Shown one piece after another: positions 2,510 to 33,173 of a stretch of DNA of 39,841 bases. This DNA comes from a bacterium. GTDB taxonomy: Bacteria; SAR324; NAC60-12. A program made the translations under genes and the position numbers. Location: positions 1 to 39,841 of the forward strand of contig CBDDTI010000155.1 of NCBI GenBank assembly GCA_965233585.1. Direction: 5' to 3'. The notes under the pieces are model-generated. The model saw nothing but the letters and a program-made list of their open reading frames with translations. It had not been told where the DNA came from and ran no database searches. How positions within the stretch are numbered: the stretch's first letter is position 1; each line of letters starts with the position of its first letter.

Positions 2510-3365
2510 GAACTGGGGATAACAGAATTAAACTAAAAAAGTTGAGAATTCATAGAACTGATATATTTAACATAGAATTAAACTACATAAGTTGATATCT
2601 CCACTGAACTGGGGATAACATAGAGTTAGACTGTTGCTCCCCCGTCCATCTAACCGCCCACATTATACAAGCAAATTCTATGGGGTTAATACCAAAAACA
2701 GGGGAGCAACACCTTATAGAAAACAATAACATAAATCAAAACAACAAACAACAAAAAAAACTCAAACAACCTAAACAATACAATAGATTATAAAAAAAGA
2801 CTATACCATAAATCATAACAAAAAAACAATTTCACTCTTATAATTTTGAAATTATAAAATGAAATTTATGTTTGCTGTTTCTTCAAGTTCTCCAGATGCT
2901 TTGTTGTTTGTGTGTGTGTCTCTTGTAATTCTTACATTGAATTTCATAATCATCACATACAGGGCAGGTCATCCATTTTATTTTAGCATTCACTTGTTCA
3001 ATGTTTTCTGCTCTATGATTTCTTCTTTCATTTATTTCTTCCCTGTGTGTCCTACCATAATTTCTAGCATATTCCTTTGCCTCCTCTATATGATTGTAAT
3101 AATACTCTCTCCTCCTTTCATTATATTTTTCTTTGTTCTTTTGATGATTAGCCCTCATATATTCCCTACATTTATCACAAGTTTTGTATATACCCTTTTC
3201 CATTTCCTTAAAACATTTAGCACACTTGACTTTAGTATCCTCCATTACCTACTATAGATAGGTAATAACTCTTTAAGTGTCTTTCCTATCCCTTTTCCCT
3301 AGATTATAACATAATCAACAACAAAATCATAACAACAAACAACAAAAGAAAAAAACAAAACAACA
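2510..3365 (+). repeat. Left terminal inverted repeat of the Polinton-like element
   Basis: GAACTGGGGATAA...GTTAGACTGTTGCTCCCCCGTC...CCCTAGATTATAACATAATCAACAACAAAATCA is the reverse complement of ~33550-34465. Identity is high to ~3329, then decays in an A/C-rich tract, so the inner edge is approximate. Confidence 0.92.
2883..3245 (-). CDS. TIR-encoded zinc-finger/basic helical protein, left copy (C-terminal frameshift)
   Basis: CxxC..CxxC N-terminus, R/E/Y-rich helix, CPVC..RH end; an extra AC in a CA run shifts the last codons relative to the right copy. Confidence 0.7.
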   Translation of the reverse strand: MEDTKVKCAKCFKEMEKGIYKTCDKCREYMRANHQKNKEKYNERRREYYYNHIEEAKEYARNYGRTHREEINERRNHRAENIEQVNAKIKWMTCPVCDDYEIQCKNYKRHTHKQQSIWRT

Positions 3366-4345
3366 TAGACAAAACAAAAGACAATAAAAAAGACAATACC
3401 ATAAATCATAACAACAATAACAAAATCAAAACAACCTACTACAAACAAAATACAAGCAAAAAGAAAGCAGCAAAACAACAATAACAAAATCCTAACAACC
3501 TACTATTAATAAAACATAAACCATAACAACCTCATCATATCAACCCATCTCATCCGTCTCATCCGTAACAACTATATAATATAATCATCATAATTGTATT
3601 GAATAATTTTCATCAAAGCATATACAAATATACATCATCTTACCTTATTTATTTCATAGGTGTTATTTCTAGAAAACATCATTGCTAGAAATAATCCTAG
3701 AAAATAATTGCAACATAAATTTAATAGAATTATTTTATCAAATTTATGGGGATAATCAACATAATTTTCATAATCATTTATTATGAAGAAGATGGGATTA
3801 ATTACCACAGTCTCCCCCTATAGGGGAAGCCTCAGCCCCCAGCCAATATACTATCCCACCCCCCAGCATACATACCAGCATACATACAAACTAGCATATC
3901 ACAACAGCATCACATCGTTCTCAATCTTAAATCTCTTTTAATCCGCAATTGCCATGCCCAAACCGCCCTTCATGAACTCGTTGATGACCACGTCTTCTTA
4001 ACCTCAGCACGGTGTGAATGGCACAGCAATCCAAACTTTTGGGGCGAAATGGAGTGAAAAAAATTTGTGTTTTGTGCCTTGTTGGTGCCAGAATGTCAAG
4101 CTTTTGAAGGCTCACTGGCATCAATGCTCTATTGAAGCAATGTCCTATTCCTACTTGACACCCTGAAACCTTGCTACCTACAGACCTTGTCAATCATAAA
4201 AGCATCAGCCAAGAGCCCTGTTTTGCAAGTCGGCGAAGCAAGCACTGTTTTGCAAGTCGCCCTGTTGGCGAAGCAAGCCTTCTCAAGACGTGAACCATCA
4301 TCGGGTCTGGGGGCCGCTGTCGACTGTGGGATGCCAGTGGAAGCC

Positions 4346-4555
4346 GCCGCGCTTCTCAGTCTCTTCGAGGTTCTCGGACCGAGGGACAAAGGGCACTCCA
4401 CTCTTCTCAGTCTCAATTGGGAGGCCGCGGCCGATGATGATGCCGCGCTTCTCAGTCTCCTCGAGGTTCTCCGACCGAGGGAGGAAGGGCACTCCACTCT
4501 TCTCAGTCTCAATCGGGAGGCCGCGGCCGATGATGATGCCGCCCTTCTCAGTCTC
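4346..4555. repeat. GC-rich tandem repeat, 96-bp period (~2.2 copies)
   Basis: Units start at 4346, 4442 and 4538 with GCCGC(G/C)CTTCTCAGTCTC; CTTCTCAGTCTC occurs five times. Confidence 0.9.
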
Positions 4556-5131
4556 CTTGCCGGAGTTCTCCTCTGCCATGACGTTGTTGCAGCTCACGCA
4601 CAATGCAATGATGAGGCAAGCGAATACACCAGATTTGAGCGCCATGGCAATGCCGACACCCCTGAGCTAAAAAGCGTCCCTGAGTGGCTTGAGGAAAAAC
4701 TCGCAAAAACGCTACGGAAGAACATAAAGATGCTGAAGAATGACACAAAATTCCAAGCGCAAACTGAAAGAGCTAATTTCTGTAGCTTCCAATTGAGACT
4801 GTCAAAGGTGCTCAAATTGAAACAAATTCCAAGGTCAAGCTCTCCAAGAACATGTGGCTTCAAACCTCCAACTGGCATATTCCCAACAGCTGAGTGCCCC
4901 GACAACAGGATGAAGAAGAGATTGATGACAAAGCCAAGGCGAGGAAGGGCAAAGGAACATGGAGCAATCCCAGCCAATGACCCAGTCAAACACAAATTCG
5001 TGGGGAGAAACAAATGAAGGGCAAAACACAAAACCCCGAAACCAAAAGAGCACATCAAATCAACCATCTCATGGTTGCATCAAGTAGGCATAAGTAAGAA
5101 AAACAAATGCTTACAAGGCTTTCTAAAAACA

Positions 5132-6052
5132 CTAAACCTTTAAAAGTTCGTGCCTCATCAACAATCTTGGGTAATCAGTTAATTTGTAATATTTTTGGTT
5201 CAACTTTTCTGCAATCTCTTGCACAACATAATAACCTTTCAGCCAGTGGGAAGTTCTTTCTTTCTGTGTAATTGCTTTCTTTCTCATTATCTTTACTTTG
5301 TCTCCCACCTCTAATGTTGGGTATATTCTTTCTTTCTTTGCCTTTGATGCTACATTCAGCATTGCTCTGAATTCATTGTTATCTTTCCTTGCCTCTTTTG
5401 GTGTCATACCTGTAGCGGAATGCTTCATCTTATCATTGTATGTCAGCATAATTTCTAAATTGTAATCAACCCATTGTATGTTTGCCTTTCCCTTTTTTTC
5501 ATCAGCCTCCACTCCTTTAAAAAGCATATCTTTGTATGTGCGTATAAATCTTTCAGCAAATGTTGGGTGTCCTCTTGTCCTATGTAAGGTTATACCTTCA
5601 CCTTCCACATAATCCTTAAAGTCTTCACCTGCTATTGCTCTCTCATCATCTGTATAAATCATTTTAGGCTTCTTACCCATTTTCCCTAATGCCTCTTTAG
5701 TTGCTTCAAGGACATCCTCCCCATTTTTAGTTTTGATTGGAACAACAACGGCATACTTGCTTAAAACATCAATGCACACTAACCCACCTCTGAATTTTTG
5801 TTCCTCATCAAAATCGTAATAACCCATAAAGAACAAATCAATCTGATAAGTGTGATAATTGTGAGGGGCTGTGAAGGAGTTATACCCTCTGGGCTTTGCT
5901 TTTATCTCAACATTTTTTCTAAAGAAATTTTCAACATCCTCTTTCTTGATTGTGGGTTCTTTCTTTTTAGCATCTTCTAATGTGGTCTTTCTTGAACCAT
6001 AGCCCGCTTTATCAAAATAAATATCACTAATAATCTTCTGTTTATCACTCAT
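5132..6052 (-). CDS. Retroviral-type (rve) DDE integrase, Polinton/Maverick family
   Basis: YQIDL...IYTDDE...FAERFIRT catalytic triad; YN...HS.TGMTP; C-terminal VGDKVKI SH3-like segment. Confidence 0.93.
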   Translation of the reverse strand: MSDKQKIISDIYFDKAGYGSRKTTLEDAKKKEPTIKKEDVENFFRKNVEIKAKPRGYNSFTAPHNYHTYQIDLFFMGYYDFDEEQKFRGGLVCIDVLSKYAVVVPIKTKNGEDVLEATKEALGKMGKKPKMIYTDDERAIAGEDFKDYVEGEGITLHRTRGHPTFAERFIRTYKDMLFKGVEADEKKGKANIQWVDYNLEIMLTYNDKMKHSATGMTPKEARKDNNEFRAMLNVASKAKKERIYPTLEVGDKVKIMRKKAITQKERTSHWLKGYYVVQEIAEKLNQKYYKLTDYPRLLMRHELLKV

Positions 6053-6090: not shown

Positions 6091-6690
6091 TTATTCTTCC
6101 TCTTGTTGCTTCAGCCAGTCTTGATGTTTTTTTGTCTTATTATGTCTTGATGTTGAGCAATTCTGAACTGGTTTTCCACACCCACATATAAAATACTGTT
6201 GTCGCATATCTTTTGTCTTTTCACAATACTGTTTTTTCCTCTCCTTTATTTTCTCTGGAATGGCAAGTCTATATTCTTTCTGCTTCAATAGCGCTTCTTC
6301 CTTGTTCTCATAGTAGTATTCCAGTTGCCTTTCATTTTTTCTTTCTCTTGTTTGTTCTTTGTATTCTTCTTTGGTTCGTCCTGCTATATGTTTATTTACA
6401 CAGTCATTGCTTTGGATGTAAAACCCTTCTCTTTTTGTCAATTCTTCTTTACTATTACAGGGGAAATTTTCTACTAATTCAATTTTACAATTTTCAAAAC
6501 CAAACTTGTCAAATATGTAATTTACACTTCTAAAAAACGGTTTGTCTTCATAATCCAAGTGAAAAAACTTATGTTTATGGTGTATCATTCTTTTTGTTAG
6601 TGGCTCAATAGTTGAACCATAGTAGCGCTCTTGGTATGCTACATCTGTAATCATATATATATTGCCCTTTTGATACTTATTATCACTCAT
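6091..6690 (-). CDS. GIY-YIG endonuclease with C-terminal zinc finger
   Basis: GNIYMI..YYGST..L.KR..H; ELVENFPC..EL..REG; C-terminal CGCG..RHNKTKKH. Confidence 0.85.
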   Translation of the reverse strand: MSDNKYQKGNIYMITDVAYQERYYGSTIEPLTKRMIHHKHKFFHLDYEDKPFFRSVNYIFDKFGFENCKIELVENFPCNSKEELTKREGFYIQSNDCVNKHIAGRTKEEYKEQTRERKNERQLEYYYENKEEALLKQKEYRLAIPEKIKERKKQYCEKTKDMRQQYFICGCGKPVQNCSTSRHNKTKKHQDWLKQQEEE

Positions 6691-6729: not shown

Positions 6730-9700
6730 TTAAATAGTTTTTATCTTATCACTAAATGCGCAATTACAAGAAACGCAATATCCAACTACATTATCCTTGA
6801 AGTGGCTTTGTTCATTATTAACCCTTTGACAGGTTATATTTGATGAAATTTTGCCATCTTCAAAATCTATCACCAATGGTTCATTACAATTTTCACACTG
6901 GGTATTCATAAGGTTCATCAAAAAATCTACATCCACATAATCCCCATCTTGTACATCTCTTCCTGCCTTTTTGTCTTGCTCAATGTAATTAAAAACCTTT
7001 CTCTCAAAATACTGCTCTACTATCCTTTTAGATTTACTTTCTTGACCTTCATTATATTTGAAAAACTTGATTTTGTTAAAGTCTGTCGCCCTTGTAAGGG
7101 CGGTGAAAAACCAATTCTTACTAACATACCATTCATTCCAATCATATATCACTATATCACCATCAACACTACAGCCCTGCTTTGAATGAGCGGTGTAGCA
7201 GTAAGCATATATAAAATGCTTTCTCAATAATTTCAGTTCTATATTTTGCTTCTCACCAGTTGCCACATTTTGTAAAACAACAATATCACCAACAATATTC
7301 ACAATCCTAAATCTGAAATTCACATTAAATTTCTTGCCTTTAGTCTTGATATATTTTCTACATATAACTTCCTCATTTATCACATATTCTTCACCTATAT
7401 TTTTCATTTCTCTGATTTTGCTGGAAACCATTTTACAGGTGTCGTTTGTATAAGCAATGTTATTATCATACATTTCTATCTTGTCAGTCCATTTGAAATA
7501 TGCATCAATGATTTCTCTAAAAGGTGTGCCTTCAAAAATCAACCTTTTAGCATCTCTTAACTTTTGCCTATCTTCTTCAGTCTTCAACCTCTTACATTCA
7601 TAAAGCATAATATTATTTTTGAAAATCAAATTAATACAATGGTCGGCGTATTTTTCGAAACTAATTACATTGCTTACTCTCTCTGGGTTTTTCAATTGCT
7701 TTGTATCACCAGTTGCTAATACAATCTTATCAGGATTATTTCTTTCAAAGTCCCATATCAAAGCCCACTTGCCGACATTATGAAAATATATCTCATCAAA
7801 CACTATGACATCATAAACTGAATACTCAAACTTTGTAAGCCTCTCATCTCCAAAAGAAATACTAAAAAACTTATTGATGGTCGCCCATTCACAACCGCAC
7901 TGTTGCCCTAACTCATTGCTATGAACAACGAATAAAACTCTGTAATTTCTATTTTTCAGATGCTTACATATATAACTCTTGCCTGAACCAGCGAACTCTG
8001 CTTGGATAAGCAACCTTTTATTATTCAAAATATGTTCATCTATGATTTCATCAGTGTTCCATTCATCCTTGACATCACCTGTCAAATTTTGATATTCAGT
8101 TATATTACATAACATACTGGGTTGTTTAGAAAAAGCCTTGCTGGGAAAATTGAATTTATCAGACCACCTCCATTCACCAATTTCACTACCAAATTTCAAC
8201 ACCTCCTTTGCCTTACCCAGATTACATTTATCAATCACAAAGGCATCAGTTTTTACTGAATACACCATTACATCATCCCTCATAAGTGTTTCATAAGCCT
8301 CATTCATATCAAAATTATGATGTTGTAAAATCAGTTCTTTCACATATTTATATCCGTTCCTCAAAGTTTTTGTATCGGAAATGTTCAGCACATAGTGCTT
8401 ACACTCATCCACTATTTTAGCACATTCTTTCTCATCACTTTCAGGTTCAATTGCATTGCCTTTATCATCAAATTCAAGCAAACAATCATCATCATCATTA
8501 TCATTCACTTCACCATCCCATTTAGTTTCAGTAATGATACTTATATCACCACCGTATTTTTCTTGATAGTAAAAGGCATCAACCATTTTTGAAAACACTA
8601 TGGACTTTTTAGCCTTGTTAGTTTGCTTTTCCAATAAGCCGATGTTGATACAAGCAATCATTTTTTTCTTCAACTTATCTTTCTCCTCATCCTCATCCAG
8701 TTTCAATTTCCAAAGTTCATCAACTATTTTTTTGTAATTAACTTTGTATGTATTAGATGGAACTTTGTAATAGATGATTTCAACCATATCAGCATATTTT
8801 TTCAAAAACTTACCGTAAATCAAGTTATAAGTCCTATTGAAAAATAGATTTCTCCTTTTGCGTTTAACAAGATATAATGTTAAAGCATTTATCTTGTTAA
8901 AATCATTCTTTGAATAATCATACTTCCTCCAAATATCAAATTCAGAAAAGACAGGCACTTCAAAAACATCCATTGTAGATTTAGTGTAGGCTTTCCTCCT
9001 ATCTAATTCAATGTGTGTATTCTTTCCTTCAATGATGCTTTCAAAATATCCACTGGGAGCTATGCTATGTGCCATTGAAAATATATTCAAGTCATCCTTA
9101 TGATAATATGACTTGTGATTAGGATTGAACATAGCCTTATTGAAATTAAAAAATGCTTCATTGACTACATTAAACATTTCAGCACTTTTACTATCAATAC
9201 AAGTATCAACAGCACAGTCTATCAAACTCTGGCTTCTGATGTTCAAAATTAATCCGTTAAATTTTACTTTGAGTGATGATACATTACCACCTGCTCCCAT
9301 TATGATTTTAGGCTCATACTTTGCCCTCTTAAACTCACAAAAAATTGTATTCAAGTTTTTGCCACTAACTAATTTCACTTCTTCTTCTTCACCCTCATTT
9401 TCTTTAACTATACCCATTATGTCATCAATGCCATTGAAAAAATCATACTTAACAGGCTTCTCTTTGCTATTTAAATGAAAGTCAGTAGAAGCATTTAGTT
9501 TCATATCTTCTTCAAAATCCCTTTGTGCTATGCTCTTGATGTTGTCATTCATTGTGTAAATGTGGTTACCCTTAATCAATTCAAACAAAACATTAACATT
9601 TTTGTTCTTGTCAGGGTCAAATGTATAAATCTTTTGACCGATACAGTTATACAACCTGACAGTTAATTTAAATTCTTCAAACACTGCTTCCATATCTTCA

Positions 9701-10779
9701 ACTGATGCCCCATTCTCCTTAAACTCTTCTTCATTTAAATTCATCAATTTCAAAATTTTATCTCTTGTCATTCTCTTGCGTTCCCATTTATTACTACTCA
9801 TCAATGTCTCTTCATAGTGGTCTATCAGTGAATTAATCCAACACTCACCGTCAGTGTGTTTCTTATTCTTGATGGCATCAACCAAATTATCACCGGCAAC
9901 ATCCATTTCAGTATTAATGGTGTAGTGATACATTCCTATCTCATGTCCATCCTTTAATTTTTTCTTTGTTTCATCCCCACTACCTCCTGTGTTTGATACA
10001 TCAGTAATGTCTAAAATCTTGATGGCAGTTGTGTAGTCTTCAAGGTTGGTATTATTCTTCAGGTCTGGGTGTTTTAAAACCAATCTCTTGAATAGTTTGT
10101 CAAACAAGGCTGTATCGTGTATCACTTCAAACTCTTTGTATCTACCTTTGGTGTCTCTTCTTTTGGGCAGTGTAGCATCTATTCCTGTCTCCCTTATCCA
10201 AGCCTCCCTAGTGTTCAGTTCATCAAATTGTTTTCTTGTAATTTTGTTTGGGTTGTCCTTCTTCAGTCTTAACCTATCTCTCAGTCGTTCCACCCATAAA
10301 TCAAACTTGTCTCTGACCGCATACTTATCCACCAGTGTTTCATTCAGTTTATCCTCATCTCTTACATTTTTCAAGTTCATCTGAATGGGCTGCTCCATAG
10401 AAAGTAGATTGTGCCAGTCTCCTTGGTTGTCTTTAAAGCCTCTCTGTCCTCCTGCTTTATGCCCATTATCAAAACCATACAACTGAAATCTTACAACATA
10501 GTCTTTCTTGTTTCTGTTAGTTGCCATTCTTTCATTCAATGGAGCTCTGCCTTCAATCTGTTCAAACTTTTTATCAAAACTTTTTTTAGCAAAAGTTGCT
10601 GTTCTCTTGTTGTCGCTCATCAGGCTGTTAATCAGTTTCTGTGCGGTTTCTCTTTGTGAAATCTTCCTGTCTCTATAAAATTCCACCACCTTATCTACTC
10701 TATATTTAACATCTTCTTTAGCACCTCTGGTTAATTTTTGTAGTATGCTTATATTATTGATTACACTTTTTGATTGCAT
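6730..10779 (-). CDS. 1349-aa replication protein: divergent family B DNA polymerase fused to an SF1 (RecD/Pif1-like) helicase and a C-terminal HNH-like zinc domain
   Basis: PolB-like motifs A (ELDRRKAY), B (KKMIACINIGLL) and C (SVKTDAF). Helicase motifs AGSGKS, VFDE, GDTKQL, TAHSKQG, FTALTRA. C-terminus CENC...QRVNN..SH..DNVV..CVSCN. Confidence 0.82.
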   Translation of the reverse strand: MQSKSVINNISILQKLTRGAKEDVKYRVDKVVEFYRDRKISQRETAQKLINSLMSDNKRTATFAKKSFDKKFEQIEGRAPLNERMATNRNKKDYVVRFQLYGFDNGHKAGGQRGFKDNQGDWHNLLSMEQPIQMNLKNVRDEDKLNETLVDKYAVRDKFDLWVERLRDRLRLKKDNPNKITRKQFDELNTREAWIRETGIDATLPKRRDTKGRYKEFEVIHDTALFDKLFKRLVLKHPDLKNNTNLEDYTTAIKILDITDVSNTGGSGDETKKKLKDGHEIGMYHYTINTEMDVAGDNLVDAIKNKKHTDGECWINSLIDHYEETLMSSNKWERKRMTRDKILKLMNLNEEEFKENGASVEDMEAVFEEFKLTVRLYNCIGQKIYTFDPDKNKNVNVLFELIKGNHIYTMNDNIKSIAQRDFEEDMKLNASTDFHLNSKEKPVKYDFFNGIDDIMGIVKENEGEEEEVKLVSGKNLNTIFCEFKRAKYEPKIIMGAGGNVSSLKVKFNGLILNIRSQSLIDCAVDTCIDSKSAEMFNVVNEAFFNFNKAMFNPNHKSYYHKDDLNIFSMAHSIAPSGYFESIIEGKNTHIELDRRKAYTKSTMDVFEVPVFSEFDIWRKYDYSKNDFNKINALTLYLVKRKRRNLFFNRTYNLIYGKFLKKYADMVEIIYYKVPSNTYKVNYKKIVDELWKLKLDEDEEKDKLKKKMIACINIGLLEKQTNKAKKSIVFSKMVDAFYYQEKYGGDISIITETKWDGEVNDNDDDDCLLEFDDKGNAIEPESDEKECAKIVDECKHYVLNISDTKTLRNGYKYVKELILQHHNFDMNEAYETLMRDDVMVYSVKTDAFVIDKCNLGKAKEVLKFGSEIGEWRWSDKFNFPSKAFSKQPSMLCNITEYQNLTGDVKDEWNTDEIIDEHILNNKRLLIQAEFAGSGKSYICKHLKNRNYRVLFVVHSNELGQQCGCEWATINKFFSISFGDERLTKFEYSVYDVIVFDEIYFHNVGKWALIWDFERNNPDKIVLATGDTKQLKNPERVSNVISFEKYADHCINLIFKNNIMLYECKRLKTEEDRQKLRDAKRLIFEGTPFREIIDAYFKWTDKIEMYDNNIAYTNDTCKMVSSKIREMKNIGEEYVINEEVICRKYIKTKGKKFNVNFRFRIVNIVGDIVVLQNVATGEKQNIELKLLRKHFIYAYCYTAHSKQGCSVDGDIVIYDWNEWYVSKNWFFTALTRATDFNKIKFFKYNEGQESKSKRIVEQYFERKVFNYIEQDKKAGRDVQDGDYVDVDFLMNLMNTQCENCNEPLVIDFEDGKISSNITCQRVNNEQSHFKDNVVGYCVSCNCAFSDKIKTI

Positions 10780-10852: not shown

Positions 10853-11125
10853 TTATTCTGATGTATCTTCAGTGTCTCCATTATTATAACTTGCTCTCAA
10901 TCTGATACACTTGCTTGATTGCTGGTGTCTCTTGAACTTTTCTTTTGTGATGCTACACCCGCATAAAGGACATTCAACTTTGACACTCAAAAACTTCTTG
11001 TAGTATTCCCAGTGGTAATATCTGTTGTATTTTTTCAAGTCCGCTTTTTTATCAATATCCACCTGTATTAGAGGCTCAATGATTACATATCCGTTTTCAT
11101 CAATGTCTCTGTTTTTGACACTCAT
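10853..11125 (-). CDS. Small zinc-finger protein
   Basis: CPLCG..KFKRHQQSSKC, similar to the fingers at the C-termini of the GIY-YIG proteins. Confidence 0.65.
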   Translation of the reverse strand: MSVKNRDIDENGYVIIEPLIQVDIDKKADLKKYNRYYHWEYYKKFLSVKVECPLCGCSITKEKFKRHQQSSKCIRLRASYNNGDTEDTSE

Positions 11126-12432: not shown

Positions 12433-12756
12433 TCAAGTAAAACTTAAATTTCTAAATTGATTTATTTGATGCTGTAAATGTTCTAATGAATTGTGCGCGA
12501 GGTTGTCCCTTTGTATTTCATTATTAATTCTGTCTATTTGATTTCTGTAATTTACCCTTTTATTTGCTTCAATTATATCATTCCTAAAAGATAATAGTTT
12601 GTCCATAGTTTCTCTTCTATCCAGTTGGTCTTTTAACCATTTAAGATAAGCACTGTCATAGTGTTTAAATATACCATAGTTATTTCCATTTGCTGGTTTG
12701 CTCATTTGTTTTCTGTAGTTCAGTGTTGTCTGTTTCTTCCTGTGTGCTTGAAACAT
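12433..12756 (-). CDS. Hypothetical small helical protein (true start possibly MSKP at 12705)
   Basis: ORF fills the gap between neighbouring genes in the same orientation. Confidence 0.5.
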   Translation of the reverse strand: MFQAHRKKQTTLNYRKQMSKPANGNNYGIFKHYDSAYLKWLKDQLDRRETMDKLLSFRNDIIEANKRVNYRNQIDRINNEIQRDNLAHNSLEHLQHQINQFRNLSFT

Positions 12757-13504
12757 TTTCTATATTAATATTATTTAGATAATCTTGATGGAATGTTGAT
12801 TTTAAATGTCTTGACCTTTGACATCTTTGATAATCCTTTCCGCAATCACATTTGATTGCTTCTTTATTCCTTGTTTGTATCTTTTCTCTATTTTCCTCTC
12901 TGTATGTTTTTACTTTTTCTAAAAACCTTTCTCTATTCTCTTGATAGTATTGTTTCTTTTCTTCATTGATTTTGTCTGTGTTTTTCTGGTGGTATTCTCT
13001 TTTCTTTTTCAATATATCTTCTTTGTTCTTCTCTCTGTATTCTTGCCGTTTTTTCTTGTATTCTTCTGTGTCCTTGTTGTCTTGATGCCATTTTTTACAT
13101 CTTTCATTAAACTTTTCTTTATTTTGTAAGTGGTATTATTTCTTTACTTCTCTGATGTATTCTTTATTATCCTCTCGCCATTCCTTTATTGTTCTTAACG
13201 GTATTTCCGTGTTTAACACAGGTTTTCTTTCTAAAATATAATGTCTTTCTCGTTTTCTTAACTCTTCAATGTCATTACAAGGGTATTTCTCAATTTCTTC
13301 AATGTAAAAATGCTCTACACCCAATTCAAGTATTTTCACACACAATTTTCTGTTCTTCTTATATGTATTAAGACTGTCTTTATGTTGTTGAAATCTTTTT
13401 TGTAATGGTTGGCAACTACTGCCTATGTAGATTTCATCATCTATAAAATGTCCAATGAAGTAGATTTTACCATTCTGAAACTTTTTATCACCTAAACTCA
13501 CCAT
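12680..13504 (-). pseudogene. GIY-YIG endonuclease with C-terminal zinc finger, disrupted
   Basis: GKIYFI..IYIGSS in 13136-13504; premature TAA at 13136-13138, then a frameshift near 13050 leading into the basic repeats and CDCG..RHLKSTFH of ORF 12680-13012. Confidence 0.8.
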
Positions 13505-17152: not shown

Positions 17153-17698
17153 ATGCCTGATTATAGCAAAGGTCAAATTTACAAAATAACTGATGTTGGA
17201 CAAACTAAATGTTATATAGGAAGCACTATTCAACAATTGTGTTATAGAATGGCAAGTCATAGGGCAAACTACAAAAACTATTTAGATGGTAAATATACTT
17301 TTGTTTCAGTATTCAGTCTATTTGAAGAGGTTGGAGTTGAAAATTGTAAAATGGTGTGGGTAAAAGATTTCCCCTGTAATAATAAAAAAGAACTTGAAGC
17401 AGAAGAAGGAAGAATACAAAAAGAAACTGATTGTGTAAATAAGAAAATTGCTGGTAGAACTCGGGCTCAATTATTTCAAGAGCACCCAGAAAAAAAAGCT
17501 ATGTTCGCAAAGAAATATCGTCAAAACAATCCAGAAAAAATCAGAGAAGACAGCAAAAAAAAAAGAGAAAAGAAAGGTAAGGTAAAACATCTATGTGTGT
17601 GTGGTTCTACTTATACATACTTTCATAAGACAAGACACGAAAAATCAAATAAGCATAAACAATACTTACAAAATCAAAGCAATCCCCAAGAGCAATAA
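17153..17698 (+). CDS. GIY-YIG endonuclease with C-terminal zinc finger
   Basis: GQIYKITD..CYIGST..L.YRMASH; C-terminal CVCG..RHEKSNKH. Confidence 0.87.
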   Translation: MPDYSKGQIYKITDVGQTKCYIGSTIQQLCYRMASHRANYKNYLDGKYTFVSVFSLFEEVGVENCKMVWVKDFPCNNKKELEAEEGRIQKETDCVNKKIAGRTRAQLFQEHPEKKAMFAKKYRQNNPEKIREDSKKKREKKGKVKHLCVCGSTYTYFHKTRHEKSNKHKQYLQNQSNPQEQ

Positions 17699-18402: not shown

Positions 18403-21089
18403 ATGGTTCAATTGGACGGTGGCAATACTATCATAGGAACAGAATTTATCAAACTTTTAGCAACGGGTTCATCAACTTTAGCAACAGAGCAGTATGTAAA
18501 TACAGCAGTTGCTAATGGTGGAGTTGGTGGAGGAACAGGCACGACTGATTTAACAAATTACTATAATAAAGCTGAGACAGATGCTTTATTAAATAATAAA
18601 TATAATAAAACTGAGGCTGACACATTGTTAGATACAAAACTGAATGTAAATAATCCTCAAAATATGGAAGGAACATTGAATATAGGAAGTGTAGGTGGAA
18701 CATCAAAGATTATTATAAATGCTGTTTCATCTTCAAAAGATTTTTATGTTAATGGCGATGCACAAGTATTAGGTAATCATTTAGTAGCATCTTTGGACAG
18801 TAGCGGTTATATCAAAGGTTCAAATATTCAGTCAAATACATTCGATGCCCTCAATACAAATGATATACTTTTTCAAAGCAACAACGATACTTACATACAA
18901 TATGATGTTTCTGAAACTAAAATCGTAGCAAGTAAATTAATACAATGCGGTGGCAATCTTAAAACCCAAGAGATAGACACCATAGCACCGTTAGATTTAA
19001 TCATAAAAAGAAACAATGTCAGTATGATTGAACTTCAAGATAATCTGACGGTATTGAATACTAAAACTCAATGCGAAAATTTTATTGTATGTGATAATTT
19101 TGAAAGCAAAAATTCATCAACAATCATAAACCATATTATGAATGAAAGCACAGGAGAAATGAAATTCTATGTAGGCAGTCCGATAGTCCCCGATACAACA
19201 ACCAATTTAATTATGACATTGAAAAACGGGATTGTTGAATTTAACAAACCTACCAATTTAGATTTATCAGGGGATACATCAAACTGCTTAAAACTGACAG
19301 GAGAAACCGACCAACAAGTAGCAGGAACTGTTGCTGTTAATGGTGCCAAAAACGGAAGTAATATATTAACTGTTAATGGGGCTTCATACTTTTCAAATAA
19401 CATAGAATGTGTTAATAACATATTATGTGATTATATTGAAAGTAAGAACGCATCAACAATAATGAATTATGTAATGAATGAGAGCACTGGAGAAATTAAA
19501 TTTTATGTTGGAAGCCCCACAGTGCCGGATGCTACAACTAATTTAGTTATGACTTTACAGAATAATCTAATTACATTTCATAAACCCACAAGTCCAGATA
19601 TTGGAGGTGGAGGGGTAGATGATACTAATTTAGTAAAATATACCGGTCAGGCAGTTCAGACAATAGAAGGCGATTTGGTCATAGGTGGTGGTTCTCAATT
19701 TTCTACTTATGACTTAACGGTTAATGGTGTTTCTTATTTTAATGCAACCATAGAATTTCCATTAGGAGGTGCGATTAATTTAGGAACTGGTAAAGGTTAT
19801 ATTCGTTCTATCAATATAGGAAGTGGCACTGCCGCGTATGATTATTGTATTTTTGGTTCTGCTGGATTACATCGGTTTTATGTTGGAGGAAGTCCATTTC
19901 CTCAACACTTAAAGTATCAATTATCATCACTCAGGCGTATTTTAATGTTGATGTCGTGTGTCATACTGAATTACAAACTGATGTCATCAATACAAAAAAT
20001 GCTACTGATGTTGATTTAGTCTTTAAAAGAGGTGATGTTGAATATATGAAGTTTGAAGGAACACTACAAGCAGTGGAACTAACAAAAGGTGCTAAATCAA
20101 ACACTTATGATAGTATCGGTAATGCTGATGTCAGTTTTAGAAGGAACACCATAGATTTTATGTATCTTAGAAATGGTAATGTAGAGGTGAATACAGGTAT
20201 ATCATTAGTTGCTGAGACTGCTAAGTTTGATGTAATTGATAGTGCCACTCCTACCAATGTAGTATTTAAAAGAGGCGGTGTTAATTTCTTTACATTAGAC
20301 GGCACTAAAAATATTATTGATGTATCAACTGGTCGGGCGTTGTCGTCTCAATATATTTATGGAGACTATTTTATCCATAGAAATGTTGGTGCTGATATGG
20401 TTTTTCAAGGCAGTAATACAACAGATGACGGTTCAGTAGAATATATGAGATACAGAAAAGCAGATGAAGATGTTATTTTTTCAAAAGATATATATGTCAA
20501 TCAAGACAAAAGGGCATATTTTCACAAAGAAACTGGTAAGAATAGTTATATATTTAATGAAAATACAGCAGGTGTTAATCATTTCAAGTTAATCAATGAA
20601 GACCCTAACGGGGACATAAGATTGTATGCTAATGGTGGTATAAGACTTGTTGTTACTCCATCAAAAGTTTCTGTTCCAGCACCTTATACATTAGAAGGCG
20701 ATGTGGTTGATACTTCCGATTTTACTAAAAAATACGACATCAAAAGTATTGAACATAACTTTACTGACATTGTTAAACAAATTGAACCTAAAACTTTCAA
20801 AATGGAAGATGAAAAAGAAATTGGAATAACTAAAAACCATCTTGGATTTATTGCCGATGAGATTATGGAAGCAATACCGCCCGAATGGGAGAATATTGTT
20901 AGGGTTGATGATGAAGGTATTAAGAAGTTAAGTTATATAAAATTGTCAGGTATATTATGGGGAGTATGTAGAGAGCAACAAACAAAGATAGAACATTTAG
21001 AAACTCGTTTGTTTGAAGTTGAAAATTTCATTAAAGATTTTGTAAAACCTAAACCTAAAACAAGGACAAGAACAAAAACAACAGAATAG
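18403..21089 (+). pseudogene. Fibre/spike-like protein with C-terminal peptidase S74-type intramolecular chaperone; one frameshift near 19900-19930
   Basis: YNKxExDxLL repeats, G/N/T-rich beta repeats, internal duplication; C-terminal SD...K.DI...K.IEPKTF...GFIADE...LSY..L...L......Q coiled coil. Confidence 0.78.
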
Positions 21090-21117: not shown

Positions 21118-21723
21118 TCAATCTTGTTCCAAACTTTTTATGTAGTTCTGGTGTTTCAGTGTTTTCAAATGTCTTGTATTATGTGTATATGTATATGTTG
21201 CTCCGCAATCACATATATGACTTGCTTTTCTTCTAGCATCAACAACTTCTTGGTTTTTCTCGTTGTATTCCTTCTGTATTTGTAAGTAATGCGCTTTGTT
21301 ATTGTAATAGTTCTCACTGCTTTTTTTGTTGTATTTTTCTTTGTTCTTTTGGTGATGCTGTGCCTTGTATGTTTTTAAATGTTCTTTATTTGCTTCTATC
21401 CATTCTGGTTTCTTTCTACCTGCTACAAGTTTATTTACACAGTCAGTGTTTTGAATGTAATATCCCTCTCTTCTATGTAGTTCATCTTTGGTTTCGCAAG
21501 GGTAATTTTCTATCAATTCAATTTTACAGTTTTCAAGTCCAAATTCTTCAAACAAAACGCCGCTGCTTACTAACTTATTCAAACCTTTACTAAAACTCTT
21601 ATAGGCACTCCTGTGTCCTGACATTCTATTACTTAATGTTTCAATGGTGCTTCCAATATAGCATTTGGTATAACCAATATCTACTATCTTATAAATTTTG
21701 CCTCTTTGATACTTGTTCTCCAT
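21118..21723 (-). CDS. GIY-YIG endonuclease with C-terminal zinc finger
   Basis: GKIYKIVD..CYIGST..LSNRMSGH; C-terminal CDCG..RHLKTLKH. Confidence 0.87.
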   Translation of the reverse strand: MENKYQRGKIYKIVDIGYTKCYIGSTIETLSNRMSGHRSAYKSFSKGLNKLVSSGVLFEEFGLENCKIELIENYPCETKDELHRREGYYIQNTDCVNKLVAGRKKPEWIEANKEHLKTYKAQHHQKNKEKYNKKSSENYYNNKAHYLQIQKEYNEKNQEVVDARRKASHICDCGATYTYTHNTRHLKTLKHQNYIKSLEQD

Positions 21724-22026: not shown

Positions 22027-22793
22027 TTAATTAATATGAATTTCTTTCTCCAGTCTCACCATAAACATTTTATTAATATCACTGTCCCTTAACTTTACAA
22101 ATAAGAATGAGTAGGGTTGAGCATCAACTGCTGTTCTGTAAATTTCCAGCATTGTCTTTTTGTCTATCAGCGCTGACTGTTCTTGAATAAATGTGTCCAG
22201 TTCTGCTTGGTTTTTCAACTTGAAAATATATAAACTGCTTGTATTTAATCTAACTATAGGAGCCAGTGCGTTCAGTTTCTGTGAAGAAGTTATGACTGAT
22301 AATCCGAAGACGAGTGTCTTGATTTTGTGTAAAGTCCGTGAAGAATTTTTGAATATCTCATAAAAACTCTATCTTCTGCCCAGTCGTCAATTATAAGAAG
22401 GCAACTATATAACTTGTTCATTTTATTTTTCTTCTGGTATTCTATCACTTTGTGCTGTGTGTCTATGATGTGTGCCAGACTTTCAGGGTCATACTCATCA
22501 AACAAATATTGCTCTTTTTTGTTGTCTATTTTTAGTTCTTTCTCTATATATCGGATTACTTCTTTGTATGCTTCATCTATGTGGGCTGTCGGTGATACAA
22601 TGTATATTCTCTCAAAGCATCCCCTGTAGATTTTTAGAATGAGGTTCTGAATTAATATACCCTTTCCGCCCTGTGATGCCGATACAATGATGCTTCTGAA
22701 TGGTAGTTTGTCTGCTTGTGGGTATGGTGATTGTTTGAATTCATACTGTTTTACATTGATAGGCTCTATTTTAGGAACATCAAGTTTTGACAT
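22027..22793 (-). pseudogene. A32/FtsK-HerA-type genome packaging ATPase, frameshifted
   Basis: Walker A-like SASQGGKG, IYIVSPT, Walker B LLIIDD, SRH. After a ~5-bp insertion near 22310 the frame continues FGLSVITSSQKL..LAPIVRLN into ORF 22027-22218. Confidence 0.85.
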
Positions 22794-24245: not shown

Positions 24246-24872
24246 ATGAAATTGTTAGAATTGTTTAGTGGCACTGGTAGTGTTGGAAGTGTAGCTAAAA
24301 ATATGGGCTGGACTGTTGTGTCATTAGATTTGAAAGGGGCTGATATAAACTGCGATATACTGCAATGGAAATACAAAAAATATCCTGTGAAATACTTTGA
24401 TATGATTTGGGTTTCACCCCCTTGTATTGAGTATAGCATCGCAAAACAAACTGGGGTAAGGAAGATTGAAGAAGCAAATGAAATAGTAATGAAAACTCTT
24501 GAGACAATCAAATACTTCAAGCCCAGAATTTGGTTCATTGAAAATCCACAAACGGGGTTATTGAAGAAGCAATCATTTATGGAGGGTTTGCCATACTTTG
24601 ATATTGACTATTGTAAATATGGGATGCAATACAGAAAAAGAACAAGGTTATGGACTAATCTGGATACTTGGACACTTAGACCTCTTTGTAAAAAGGATTG
24701 TGATAGTATGGATGGGAACAGGCATAAAGAAACAGCACAAAGGGCACCCAGTAATAAAAAGGAAACTTGGCCTGAAAACTATACCTTGTTCAAACAAAAG
24801 GATTTGTATAGAATACCTCAAGCATTGGTTGAAGAAATTATGACTGCTGTAAATGTTGTATGTTTTCAGTAA
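24246..24872 (+). CDS. Compact C5 cytosine DNA methyltransferase (viral)
   Basis: Motif I LELFSGTG, motif IV SPPC, motif VI IENP, motif VIII-like YRKRT. Confidence 0.9.
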   Translation: MKLLELFSGTGSVGSVAKNMGWTVVSLDLKGADINCDILQWKYKKYPVKYFDMIWVSPPCIEYSIAKQTGVRKIEEANEIVMKTLETIKYFKPRIWFIENPQTGLLKKQSFMEGLPYFDIDYCKYGMQYRKRTRLWTNLDTWTLRPLCKKDCDSMDGNRHKETAQRAPSNKKETWPENYTLFKQKDLYRIPQALVEEIMTAVNVVCFQ

Positions 24873-24911
24873 GATTGGGTCGTAAAGGGTTCCTACACTT
24901 GGGCTCATTGA

Positions 24912-25026
24912 GTAGGATTTGGGTTTCCTACTTGGTAGGATTTTCATTTCCTACTTGGAAAGGTGCTCATAAGGTAGGATAGGGGGTTCCTACTTGGGCT
25001 CATAAGGTAGGATAGGGGGTTCCTAC
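24912..25026. repeat. Array of four palindromes GTAGGA-N8-TCCTAC
   Basis: Copies start at 24912, 24935, 24974 and 25007. Confidence 0.88.
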
Positions 25027-25090
25027 TTGGGCTGGATTTCGGTTCTCAACTTGGAATGGAGAGGTGCCATTCCTGAAAATGTATGGGTTC

Positions 25091-25223
25091 TGTGAATGTA
25101 AAGCCAGACTTTGGACTTGCAGGTCTTGTGACATTTACCGGGCCACCCAGGCTCATGAGTTGTCAGAGTGTGAAACAGGTGCGGCTAGTTTCTCCGGTGG
25201 TTTCCCCCTTTAGTTTGTTTACA
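25091..25223 (+). repeat. 5' LTR
   Basis: TGTGAATG...GTTTACA; one substitution relative to the 3' LTR. Confidence 0.96.
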
Positions 25224-25224
25224 T

Positions 25225-25236
25225 TGGTAGCGGAGC
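25225..25236 (+). promoter_or_regulatory. Primer-binding site (probably tRNA-Met)
   Basis: TGGTAGCGGAGC one base after the 5' LTR; resembles Met-tRNA PBS sequences such as TGGTATCAGAGC. Confidence 0.7.
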
Positions 25237-25314
25237 CGCTCCAGGCGGCTGTCTAACCTGGACAAAGATCTGCCATAGCCGTTGCTGTGGCGGCCTACGC
25301 TGCGGAGGTGACCC

Positions 25315-28300
25315 ATGCCGTCTCCCGTGGAGCCTGCTGCTGAGGTCGACGGTGGCTCCGCCTCTGATGAGTCCGGTGGGGGCAATGATGATGCTGCTCC
25401 TGGGGAAGAGACTCAGCAGAGGTCTACGGCAAGATGGACTGATGAGGACTGGAGGTTGTGGAACTCTGGTGGTTGGTGGGAGGCTACTAGGAATAGGGCA
25501 CCTTCAACGGAAACCACCCCGACACCTGATGGGGAACACTCAGATGGTCATGGAACTGGGTATGTACGTAGGTCGTATACCACTAGGTCTTCTGACCCTT
25601 GGTTGAACCCTTGGAAAGACCCATGGACGAGTAGTCAGTATGGGAGTCAGAGAGACGAGGTTCCTGAGGAACGTGGAGGTGGCAACGACAAGATCGTGGC
25701 CCCAGAGTTTTCTGGGGAAGAGGACCGTGATGGGACTCGTGCTCGCAGCTACTTGAGGAAGATCGAGGCGTGGCGGAGGGTCACTAGGCTCAAGCCCAAC
25801 AAGCAGGCCTTGGTCTTGTACAACGGCCTCACTGGCAAGGCGTGGCACGATGCTGAGGAGATCGATGTGAAGATGCTGGACTCCAACGACGGTGTCGAGA
25901 AGTTCATCGGCTGGATCACCCAGCGCTACCTGGACAAGGAGGTCGTGAAGGCGGGCAGGTACATGAGTGACTTCTTCAAGCTCTTCAAGCGGGGCACGAA
26001 CCAGGACATCAGGGACTACAATAGCGAGTTCGATCGCCATCTCACGAAGCTCAAAGAGGTTGGCTGCGTCCTTCCGGGAGTCTGCAGCTCATGGTGGTAC
26101 ATCGACAAGCTAAGGTTGGACAGTGCAACGGAGTTGAGCCTCTTGTCATCCGTCAACAACCAGTATGACTTGGGGCGATTGCAGGAAGCTGCAGTTGTGC
26201 AGGATCGCATGAACCGGCGCCTTTGGGAGACCGGACGGAGGAGTGACACCAAGGACAACAAGAAGAACCAGCAGGCCTACATGACTGAGCTCGACGACAT
26301 CCCTGAGGACATGGAGGACTTCGAGGATGCCGAGGACTTTGACGAGACCTACGTCCCTGACGATGAGGACCCTGAAGCCCACGAGGCATTTGTGGCCTTT
26401 CAGAATGCCAAGGCCAAGTACAACAACATGCTGAAGGCTCGTGGCACTACTTTGACTAAGAGCCGTGAGGAAGCTCTCAGTCGGGCAAAGGCACGGTCGT
26501 TCTGTTCGGCATGTGGCAAGAAGGGCCATTGGCATAAGGATGCGGAGTGCCCCAAGAACAAGGGCAAGGATGCCGCAGCTGCTCCCCATGTGACCCATGT
26601 CGTCTTCTACACGGAGGGCACCTACTTGGACACCATCGTGGATTGTGCGTGCAGTCGCACGCTGGCGGGAACTATGTGGTGCAGGAAGTACATCGAGCTG
26701 GCGAAGGACAACGGCATCCCCTACATCATCATCAACCAGGACGAGACCTTCAAGTTTGGTGGACCGAAGCTCTACCCATCCAAGAAGGCGATCATCGGGT
26801 GGCTGGCCATTCAAGGCCGTTGGTTTTTGATCAAGATAGCTCTGGTGGCAGCACAAGTGCCGCTTCTCTTGAGCCGGCCCGTGTTGGCCTCTCTTGGAAT
26901 GAACTACAAGATGGACATCAATGTGGCGGACTTCACAAAGCTTAGCCTTGAGCATGTCAAGCTTGATTTCACGACTTCTGGACATCCCAGAGTCAATGCT
27001 GTGAATTTTGGACCGAAGGTCCCACTCTGGCCGGACAACATCGACTGGAGTGTGACAGAAGTGCACATCCCCGACACGGCATCTGCTGCGTCCCGAGCAT
27101 ACATGGCGAGTGCTGCTTCTGTTGGGCGGGTCCACTTCTTTTACCCCAAAGTACATGGACACATTTTTGACATGCTCACCCGTGACACATTGCCGAGTGA
27201 AACTTTCCTACATTGGTGGAACCAACAAACACATGTACGAGATTTTTGGGTGGAAGATGATGAATACATGGTGAGGGTACATGTGACACCACGTCGCACA
27301 TGTTTTGACCCTGGACGCTGGAACACGTCAGATGACACTTTGAGGACAAACCTTTTGAAGGAATTAGATGAGTGCAGGGAAACGACATGCATTCCATGCT
27401 ATGGCAATGGCATCACACATTGTCTTGAACATCGGTGGCGTCATGATTCTTCACCACGTGCTGACTTCTTGTGGATTGGCCGCAGCCGTTTTCGTCGTCG
27501 ACGCACGACGGAGCAAACCTGCTGCCCCACAATTCGACCTGTGTCGGATGTCCAGGACCGCTCCCAAGTCGCCATGGAAGATGACTCGTGCCGAGCTCAT
27601 CCAACAGATGGAGGATCTGGACATCCCAGTGAGGTACGAGTGGACTGTGCCGGAGCTGAGGGCGACTCTCTTGGGGACGCTGGACACCAAGGGGGACCAC
27701 ACCTACAAAGCGGTCGGCATCTCGCACATGTCGCTGGACGCCTTGAAGGAGAAGTGCAGCCAGGAGGGCATCCCCTTGCCGCCGCGACCCACACGGGGGC
27801 TACTCATGAAGCTGCTGCGGGAGAACACCCCACCGACCGGCGAGGAGAAGGTGTGCTTCGGGAGCTACAGGGGCTTCATGTACAAGGAGGTCAACTGGAG
27901 CTACCTGAACTGGGCGGTGAAGGAGGTGGAGACGAACCCCAACCACAGCCCAGACTTGGCACGTCTGGCTCGTTGGGCACAAGCCGAGAAGTCCAAGCCC
28001 CCTCGCGGTGGAACTTCTTCCGTGAGTGGGGATCCAGAACGTTCGGCCGTTCTGCCGATTCCTCTGGAGGCGCTTCCCAAGGCCAAGCACAAGATGGAGA
28101 AGAACACCATGAAGACAGCGAGAACATCGAGGACTCGGCCTCTGACGTCGGATTCCGAGGGATTCAGCCTGGTGTCGGAGCCCGAGATGAGCACGGAGGA
28201 TCAGATCAAGGACATGGAGTCGCGACTTCAGGTGCTGAAGGCCGTCAAAGCGGAGGAGGACAAGAAGGACAAGGGGTACTAGCTGGTGCCTCCAAAGTCA

Positions 28301-32756: not shown

Positions 32757-32767
32757 AACACAACCAG

Positions 32768-32900
32768 TGTGAATGTAAAGCCAGACTTTGGACTTGCAGG
32801 TCTTGTGACATTTACCGGGCCACTCAGGCTCATGAGTTGTCAGAGTGTGAAACAGGTGCGGCTAGTTTCTCCGGTGGTTTCCCCCTTTAGTTTGTTTACA
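32768..32900 (+). repeat. 3' LTR
   Basis: 132 of 133 positions identical to the 5' LTR. Confidence 0.96.
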
Positions 32901-33027
32901 GGTTCCATTCCCCAAAATGTATATAGGGGGTGCATTCCTACCCAAAAATGATTAAATGTCCTTCATAATCTGCCCAAAATGTAGGGGCTACATTCCCCAA
33001 AATGGAGGGGTTCCATTCCCATTATCT

Positions 33028-33153: not shown

Positions 33154-33173
33154 TGGGTATTGAGCCTATGGAC

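Follow-up and report, generated by a model that had tools for sequence, protein, structure and literature searches.

What kind of replication protein is encoded by the long open reading frame at 6730-10779 of the window (the whole stretch of DNA analysed, 39,841 nucleotides of contig CBDDTI010000155.1), and is it likely to work? The frame, which lies on the reverse strand as do all of its domains described below, is single and unbroken and specifies 1349 aa. An earlier note on this DNA had read it as a possibly self-processing polymerase-helicase-nuclease, and every motif that the note had listed was found in place in the intact frame. Read from its N-terminus, the chain starts with a helical domain, followed by an alpha/beta domain placed where pPolBs have their terminal protein, an OTU-type protease, a polymerase palm, a superfamily 1 helicase and a small HNH-like Zn module. 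We consider it highly probable that an integrated polinton-like virus uses this chain as its replication protein and that it is a member of the pPolB-S1H fusion family, also called 'Tlr1-like helicases', the named members of which were compared by description only. These fusions have been published with the architecture TP-vOTU-palm-S1H, to which HNH or GIY-YIG is added, and the later of the two papers predicts that they are active polymerases (Krupovic, Yutin, Koonin 2016, PMC5499653; Krupovic et al. 2024, PMC11071308). The family is further described there as having three globular domains ahead of the palm, a vOTU, a DTD motif that lacks its first Asp and, at the C-terminus, an HNH or GIY-YIG domain. 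The novelty implied by the earlier note therefore falls away, and as both the architecture and the proposed mechanism are already in print (PMC5499653, PMC11071308), the weight of the locus as a discovery is small and its value is that of an annotation.

The protein homologue search returned full-length relatives of 1300-1390 aa, the top one 89% identical at 100% query coverage, and public protein sets already hold relatives with 85-89% identity. Conservation in the palm and OTU domains was read from an alignment of 62 sequences with identity down to ~25%, and that of helicase and C-terminal residues from an alignment of 30 sequences, two of which end before the C-terminal module. A profile search for named distant relatives gave 32 proteins, none with a descriptive name and one with a eukprot gene-model label only. 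Pfam, searched with the whole replicase and five fragments at E <= 10, contained nothing relevant for the non-helicase domains, and for all 30 aligned members it reported helicase families only and no polymerase, OTU or HNH. With the same 30 members PHROGs yielded 'exonuclease V' for 5, all other families being without a name, and no polymerase, OTU or HNH. PDB phmmer with the replicase yielded 0 matches, and a PDB profile search with the 30 sequences only weak helicase matches to RecD and TraI (E 0.03-0.18) and no polymerase, OTU or HNH.

The polymerase palm

The polymerisation (palm) domain extends over 8140-9192. Its structure model (pLDDT 89.5, pTM 0.81) bears out the PolB-like domain proposed earlier, as phi29 DNA polymerase fills the best 8 PDB rows (probability 1.00, E 2.4e-5 to 1.5e-4, 361-383 aligned columns), with modest query-normalised TM-scores of 0.44-0.48. 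Motif A has D593 (codon 9001-9003), the first residue of DRRKAY (residues 593-598, 8986-9003), motif B spans K706 to G714 (8638-8664, within KKKMIACINIGLL at ~8632-8670) and motif C, K843-T-D845 (8245-8253), belongs to KTDAF (residues 843-847, 8239-8253). In model numbering, to which 519 is added for protein numbering, strand 70-75 carries D593, helix 179-196 carries K706, and D845 sits in the turn that joins strands 320-324 and 327-331. Insertions are seen in the model at residues 604-697, separating motifs A and B, and at residues 720-805, separating motifs B and C, and the boundaries of TPR1 and TPR2 are approximate. S557, D593, D615, K706, G714, D845 and G868 are invariant in all 62 aligned sequences. 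The central region models as a PolB palm and has both of the Asp residues that the note had asked about; we take D593 and D845 to be the metal ligands by analogy with D249 and D458 of phi29.

A family-A-like polymerase of the TVpol type, in place of PolB, is suggested only by the consensus 'IANINFGLLEK', which resembles the Pol I O-helix motif. However, of the 47 PDB matches listed for the palm model 36 belong to family B and not one to family A, all 8 with E <= 1e-3 being phi29, a protein-primed PolB, and the K-x3-N-x2-[FY]-G spacing in the 30-sequence alignment is an exact fit to PolB motif B. With phi29 on top and family A missing from the fold matches listed, a PolA or TVpol identity of the motifs was ruled out and we give it virtually no chance; the model argues strongly for a protein-primed PolB-type polymerase.

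Neither the Exo I-III motifs nor the DTD of the canonical Polinton pPolB are present. Between residues 410 and 560 Asp is nowhere conserved and Glu at just two positions (E467, E489). The subdomain of residues 446-516 shows no conserved set of acidic residues of the DEDD type, and no 3'-5' exonuclease occurs among the PDB matches listed for the model of residues 1-560. No intact Exo domain was thus found, and the proofreading deficiency put forward in the note is supported by the sequence.

It was proposed in 2016, because motif 4 is lost and motif 3 altered, that the palm of these proteins is inactivated (PMC5499653), in which case the protein would be a helicase only and its palm a structural part of a replisome that uses another polymerase. 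The replicase offers some features in favor of this reading: the first Asp of DTD is replaced by K843 (invariant in the 30-sequence alignment and present in at least 90% of the 62-sequence alignment), motif 4 (KxY) was not recognised and the Exo domain is missing. Pfam finds no further polymerase gene in the element, yet host or helper-virus polymerases could serve. In contrast, the invariance of D593, D845, K706 and G714 in 62 of 62 sequences at ~25% identity is unexpected for a dead active site, and the claim of inactivation is withdrawn in the later paper, in which active polymerases without the same Asp are described (PMC11071308). We consider an inactivated palm very improbable. In the 62 relatives neither the two metal-binding Asp nor the Lys of motif B nor the Cys-His pair of the OTU domain ever varies, and this adds independent support to the 2024 prediction that pPolB-S1H fusions are active polymerases and proteases.

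Domains on either side of the palm

The chain begins with a helical domain (residues 1-89, 10513-10779), modelled at a pLDDT mostly >90 and made of helices 4-17, 22-36, 43-53, 58-76 and 81-89. An ESM Atlas search with residues 1-290 gave no usable match, and the family's N-terminal domain is described as variable (PMC11071308). The middle alpha/beta domain of the model (residues 92-260, 10000-10506; strands 92-103, 114-116, 122-125, 132-139, 152-155 and 252-260 with helices in between) occupies the position of the pPolB terminal protein and, by analogy with what is described there (PMC11071308, section 10), we infer that it may have the terminal-protein role.

A cysteine protease domain of vOTU-like type follows at residues ~295-420 (9520-9897), with GECWINSL at residues 311-318 (9826-9849) and GNHIY at residues 404-408 (9556-9570). 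The Cys-His dyad that the note had proposed to look for consists of Cys313 (codon 9841-9843) and His406 (codon 9562-9564); both are invariant in 62/62 aligned sequences and in the model they are the first residues of helix 313-322 and of strand 406-409, respectively. The fold matches agree with one another but are weak, with proteases of the OTU or tymovirus PRO/DUB type making up 23 of the 43 PDB matches listed for the model of residues 1-560, the best of them at E 0.13 and probability 0.87, every listed match having E >= 0.09 and those of the OTU type E >= 0.13. In a viral-structure search the same N-terminal model matched bidnavirus-like pPolBs (E 2.2e-4) and a 999-aa protein without a name (E 5e-4, probability 0.97), with mavirus pPolB at rank 13 (E 0.052, probability 0.77). 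The Cys protease suggested earlier is thus supported, and modelled, as an OTU-type domain. Between it and the palm the model places a small alpha/beta subdomain (residues 446-516, 9232-9444, pLDDT ~90), possibly an exonuclease vestige or a linker.

Downstream of the palm the superfamily 1 helicase (residues ~915-1240, 7060-8037) is clear, as the note had it. Pfam Viral_helicase1 matches the whole protein at E 4e-7 and a fragment at E 2.1e-8, and among the 30 members AAA_30 is matched by 19, UvrD_C_2 by 14 and Viral_helicase1 by 14. Walker A reads GSGKS (residues 931-935, 7975-7989), and the 30 aligned sequences show no variation at G931, G933, K934, S935, D995, D1025 and Q1028.

The C-terminal Zn-binding, HNH-like (His-Me-finger-like) module comprises residues 1281-1345 (6745-6939) and carries the motif CxxC...QRxNN...H...DN...CxxCN at residues 1295-1339 (6763-6897). 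In the 30-sequence alignment Q1318 and R1319 are strictly invariant, whereas C1295, C1298, H1326, N1330, C1335, C1338 and N1339 are conserved at the level of at least 90%, not strictly, because two of the 30 rows end before the module; in a 15-sequence alignment (A4) the residues Y, C, C, Q, R, N, H, N, C, C and N of the module are invariant. The strict signature [QD]-R..N...H...N....CxxCN occurs in 42 of 61 relatives, and ~11 more have variant forms by eye. The motif reported in the note therefore stands, while its HNH identity is a non-significant lead: the PDB profile search has McrA (6ghc, E 0.88) and an HNH endonuclease (4h9d, E 1) as its best matches, both non-significant, and HNH clusters of the ESM Atlas score 0.78-0.82 with the C-terminal part, short of the 0.9 from which a match is regarded as stronger than a lead. 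In the alignment with McrA, itself non-significant, the module has the Asn and CxxCN, and the 'HH' of McrA stands opposite T or a gap just before the invariant Q-R, with no His at the position of the first HNH His. HNH in helicases of polinton-like viruses was reported by HHpred in 2016 (PMC5499653), and the literature views the C-terminal module as the leftover of a homing-endonuclease or intein invasion. We tentatively raise the thought, which we hold to be unlikely, that the Zn module could instead be a functional component of the replicase, maintained by vertical descent (e.g., a modified His-Me finger which would nick or hold the ends of the inverted repeats), and that subdomain 446-516 might in the same way be what is left of the exonuclease domain.

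The host element and its proposed replication

The replicase gene sits in what is very probably a polinton-like virus integrated in a eukaryotic genome, and we annotate 2510-34465 as such a virus with an intact replicase. The element, of ~32 kb, is bounded by terminal inverted repeats of ~950 bp: the left one (2510-3460), which starts at GAACTGGGG (2510), is 91-99% complementary to the right one (33499-34465) in the inverted-repeat alignment, and the flanks tgtggtt (2503-2509) and tatggtt (34466-34472) represent a possible target-site duplication of 5-7 bp. A 67-nt inverted match (2007-2073 and 34967-35033) was rejected as the element end, the alignment showing it to be a separate short repeat and the true termini to be at 2510 and 34465. 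The element also encodes an A32-like ATPase and an rve-type integrase (5132-6052, reverse strand; Pfam rve E 1.1e-6); the integrase score of 29.3 bits falls below the curated cut-off of 32.6 bits. No capsid proteins were found in the element by Pfam, and PDB phmmer of the two largest neighbouring ORFs gave nothing relevant.

This copy could be a dead relic of an endogenised element, idle in the host genome, its replicase frame having stayed open by chance or because it arrived recently. A nested LTR retrotransposon of 7.8 kb, which has a 5-bp target duplication, interrupts the element, so the copy may be silent, and its A32-like ATPase ORF has just 167 aa and covers only positions 11-127 of the 242 of the profile (Pfam E 3.6e-5). 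Yet the 1349-aa frame is open throughout and aligns with its relatives over 100% of its length, and of the 23 strongly conserved columns at which it departs from the family 21 are common to its own clade and just 2 are private. As the LTRs of the retrotransposon are 99% identical, the interruption is recent, which likewise counts against this reading. We regard a dead relic as somewhat unlikely.

We propose that a linear element ending in inverted repeats would be replicated by the fusion chain through protein priming. The N-terminal part of the chain would supply the priming residue and the OTU domain would cleave this priming part off the polymerase; self-processing by the vOTU is included, as a prediction, in the hypothesis published for pPolB-S1H fusions (PMC5499653, PMC11071308). 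The exonuclease-less polymerase would remain active, as expected from the invariance of both metal-binding Asp residues and of the motif B Lys, while the fused helicase would open the duplex ahead of it and the C-terminal module may act as a nuclease or a DNA anchor. As this domain set fits ordinary protein-primed replication with a fused helicase, the different replication mechanism envisaged in the note is not supported.

Comparison with known systems

The best structural match of the palm, phi29 DNA polymerase (PDB 2pyj, 2py5, 2ex3, 1xhx), is likewise of the protein-primed type at 9-11% identity; unlike the replicase it combines a proofreading exonuclease domain with a DTD motif C and a KxY motif, its terminal protein is separate, and it lacks a protease and a helicase. 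The canonical Polinton/Maverick pPolB has a TP-vOTU N-terminus, a protein-primed palm and an rve integrase in the element, as here, but it retains the Exo domain and lacks a fused helicase. The fusion from Oxyrrhis marina (PMC12721341), found in a protist's polinton-like virus, likewise joins an SF1 helicase and a pPolB in one chain; in it, however, the helicase is N-terminal, the opposite order, and the Exo domain is complete, and its authors judge its origin to be independent. The pPolB of mavirus (TP-vOTU-PALM) is described as likewise exonuclease-less, with an N-terminal TP and vOTU and the same Asp of motif C missing (PMC11071308), although it has no fused helicase and its S3H helicase is a separate gene.

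The closest likeness is to the Tlr1-like helicases of polinton-like viruses, Tlr1 elements and transpovirons, which, judged by the published description, have the same domain order as the replicase (PMC5499653, PMC11071308). Common to both are the Cys and His of the vOTU, a palm with TPR1 and TPR2 and without Exo, a motif C without its first Asp, and the SF1 helicase; the length of 1000-1400 aa and a host element with terminal inverted repeats are likewise shared. At the C-terminus Tlr1 itself has GIY-YIG and the forms of polinton-like viruses have HNH, whereas for the transpoviron helicases neither was identifiable in the 2016 paper (PMC5499653). The replicase does not differ in kind from this description, although the small alpha/beta subdomain between its vOTU and its palm may be an addition.

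The replicase and its relatives

The replicase (P0001) is encoded by one open frame of 1349 aa at 6730-10779 on the minus strand, and every motif named in the earlier note was recovered from it, each in its place: DRRKAY (residues 593-598, 8986-9003), KKKMIACINIGLL (about 8632-8670), KTDAF (residues 843-847, 8239-8253), the Walker A motif GSGKS (residues 931-935, 7975-7989), GECWINSL (residues 311-318), GNHIY (residues 404-408) and the C-terminal CxxC...QR.NN...H...DN....CxxCN (residues 1295-1339). A word-index search returned 93 relatives, many of full length (1300-1390 aa), the closest being 89% identical across the entire protein. Residues 1-900, searched exhaustively with phmmer against 1.84 billion representatives, matched 1017 proteins at E <= 1e-3, 86 of them at E <= 1e-30.

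Relatives were aligned in one set of 30 sequences and two of 62, the latter down to about 25% identity. C313, H406, S557, D593, D615, K706, G714, D845 and G868 are invariant in the 30- and 62-sequence alignments; the 30-sequence alignment adds the helicase residues G931, G933, K934, S935, D995, D1025 and Q1028, and the strictly invariant C-terminal Q1318 and R1319. C1295, C1298, H1326, N1330, C1335, C1338 and N1339 are conserved in 90% or more of these 30, falling short of invariance because two rows stop ahead of the module. Judged by these relatives and invariant residues, the motifs are not chance strings. The copy studied here departs from strongly conserved columns at 23 positions, 21 of which are common to its own clade and two private, and it appears sound.

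The SF1 helicase proposed in the earlier note was borne out by Pfam, with a Viral_helicase1 match in the replicase (E 4e-7) and, among 30 family members, AAA_30 in 19, UvrD_C_2 in 14 and Viral_helicase1 in 14. PHROGs returned 'exonuclease V' for 5 of the 30, and a PDB profile search gave RecD and TraI at E 0.03-0.18. Beyond the helicase, these sequence libraries (Pfam, PHROGs, PDB profile) recognised no domain of the replicase.

Polymerase, protease and C-terminal domains

Residues 520-915 were modelled with AlphaFold2 from 62 sequences (pLDDT 89.5, pTM 0.81). When this model was compared with the PDB, all eight matches at E <= 1e-3 were phi29 DNA polymerase (E 2.4e-5 to 1.5e-4, probability 1.00, 361-383 aligned columns, query TM 0.44-0.48). 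Family-B polymerases account for 36 of the 47 matches listed and family-A polymerases for none. The consensus IANINFGLLEK, which is reminiscent of the Pol I O-helix, had raised the idea of a family-A (TVpol-like) central domain, a reading that the structure comparison rules out. The family-B assignment stands, and in the model a strand holds D593, a long helix K706 and a beta-hairpin turn D845, as expected of motifs A, B and C. Across the family these motifs read D-x2-K-A-[YF]-T, K-x3-N-x2-[FI]-G (with PolB spacing) and K-T-D, so that, compared with the usual DTD, motif C has Lys in place of the first Asp and keeps the second; the Asp residues of motifs A and C are both present in the model. 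Residues 410-560 hold no conserved Asp, two conserved Glu (E467, E489) and none of the Exo I-III motifs, in agreement with the earlier failure to recognise exonuclease motifs.

The model of residues 1-560 (pLDDT 87.6) comprises a helical domain (residues 1-89), an alpha/beta domain (92-260) and an OTU-like domain (299-420) in which C313 starts a helix and H406 a strand. No PDB match of this model is better than weak (E >= 0.09 throughout), and among those listed 23 of 43 are OTU or tymovirus-type proteases or deubiquitinases, including TYMV PRO/DUB (probability 0.87), maize rayado fino virus protease (0.85), Crimean-Congo virus OTU (0.72), OTUD2, DUBA and otubain 1; the 23 include 3von and 4ksl, which we assume to be OTU. 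In the comparison with predicted viral structures the three matches at E <= 1e-3 were an unnamed 999-aa protein (probability 0.97) and two bidnavirus-like proteins labelled 'DNA-directed DNA polymerases'; mavirus pPolB ranked 13th, and replicases of tymoviruses and betaflexiviruses were among the further matches. The invariant C313/H406 pair and the prominence of OTU-type matches, weak as they are, support the cysteine-protease-like domain first read from the sequence.

The same model confidently places a small alpha/beta subdomain (residues 446-516, 9232-9444) between the OTU domain and the palm, which the available parts of PMC5499653, PMC11071308 and PMC12721341 do not mention. One family member has a Glyoxalase_2 match here (Pfam, E 0.0033), and glyoxalase-like chains occur among the weak PDB matches.

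For the HNH-like claim, the signature module is present, while the best PDB matches of its 15-sequence profile, McrA (E 0.88) and HNH endonuclease 4h9d (E 1), are non-significant, and Atlas similarity to HNH clusters (0.78-0.82) is a lead-level score. In the non-significant McrA alignment the His-His pair of McrA lies directly ahead of the invariant Gln-Arg, which leaves no evident canonical first His. Of 61 relatives, 42 show the strict pattern, about 11 have variants of it as judged by eye, and 8 are without the module; retention for a function would explain this frequency no worse than repeated invasion.

The element carrying the replicase gene

The AT-rich element is bounded by inverted repeats of about 950 bp (2510-3460 and 33499-34465; 91-99% complementary), the right one with 23 nt duplicated internally close to its tip, and the flanks tgtggtt/tatggtt possibly represent an imperfect short target-site duplication. 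It carries an rve integrase (Pfam E 1.1e-6, under the Pfam cut-off) and an A32-like packaging ATPase (22290-22793, 167 aa; Pfam E 3.6e-5, profile positions 11-127 of 242) whose ORF may be truncated or frameshifted. Peptidase_S74 is an intramolecular chaperone of endosialidase or tail-fibre type, and its match in a 414-aa ORF (19845-21089, E 2.4e-10) suggests a fibre-like protein. Pfam on the ORFs and PDB phmmer on the two largest neighbouring ORFs identified no capsid genes.

Four small ORFs are paralogous (6091-6690, 13136-13504, 17153-17698, 21118-21723); three have Pfam GIY-YIG matches, and 21118-21723 is linked to them solely by a 74% DNA repeat to 6343-6513. At least ORF 6091-6690 among them has a Cys/His-rich tail resembling a zinc ribbon, and similar Cys/His motifs occur in ORFs 10853-11125, immediately upstream of the replicase, and 12680-13012. 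Within the element a GC-rich block (4000-5017, 51%) includes a 96-nt sequence in two tandem copies (4346-4537, 95% identical) as well as a repeat-rich ORF of 276 aa without a family match.

A GC-rich (about 55%) LTR retrotransposon of 7.8 kb is nested at 25091-32900, with 133-nt LTRs (99% identical, TG..CA ends), a 5-bp GGTTC duplication at both sides and rve and RVT_2 (Copia-type) matches in ORFs from 25315 to 32756. Just upstream lies a C5 cytosine DNA methyltransferase-like ORF (24246-24872, 208 aa), which is probably not the gene that was interrupted, as its frame stops ahead of the insertion. In the interval from the retrotransposon to the right inverted repeat, at 33005-33350, tandem repeats of about 23 nt (GGGCTGGACATAGGGATGTCTAA and a TACTGAATACGGG-type unit) form two arrays, and comparable repeat-encoded peptide strings occur just ahead of the insertion (about 24900-25090). 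The flanking host DNA holds a second Copia-type reverse-transcriptase ORF (37513-39720, minus strand, 735 aa, RVT_2 E 1.4e-16), and three copies of a short sequence of about 70-85 nt, which may be a MITE or a small host repeat, lie beyond the element ends (1990-2073, 34964-35037, 35400-35486; both orientations, 86-97% identical).

Proposed replication and the published family

In all 62 relatives the two metal-ligand Asp, the Lys of motif B and the Cys-His pair stay unchanged, which argues for both polymerase and protease being active. Beyond the folds and invariant residues, which the models and alignments show, we infer from the family literature and phi29-type replication that replication of the element would be protein-primed, on linear DNA ending in the inverted repeats: the priming residue would lie in the N-terminal part of the replicase, which OTU cleavage would release, the exonuclease-less polymerase would carry out extension and the fused helicase would open the duplex.

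The earlier domain reading was thus supported by motifs, alignments and models; its suggestion of an unusual, unrecognised architecture fails, since the family has been published and public sets already contain near-identical proteins. In the available text of PMC5499653 (Krupovic, Yutin, Koonin 2016), 'Tlr1-like helicases' of polinton-like viruses, Tlr1 elements and transpovirons are 1000-1400 aa long, with about 450 unannotated N-terminal residues, a pPolB domain with motifs 1, 2a, 2b and 3 and TPR1/TPR2, without motif 4 or exonuclease and regarded at the time as inactive, then an SF1 helicase and, in PLV proteins, a C-terminal HNH domain. The parts of the preprint PMC11071308 (Krupovic and colleagues 2024) available to us describe structure models with three globular domains ahead of the palm: the N-terminal one is variable, the second has an alpha/beta fold and takes the place of the terminal protein, and the third is a vOTU whose Cys and His are conserved. 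They point out that active polymerases, e.g. mavirus, lack the same motif C Asp, and predict active 'pPolB-S1H fusion proteins' whose vOTU frees the terminal protein. As far as these parts go, our models agree with those fusions domain for domain, and the replicase is a member of this published pPolB-S1H, or Tlr1-like helicase, family. PMC12721341 (Haro and colleagues 2025), which in its available part restates the Tlr1-type domain order, describes a separate fusion with the helicase N-terminal and the exonuclease complete, whereas in the replicase the helicase follows the palm and the exonuclease is absent.
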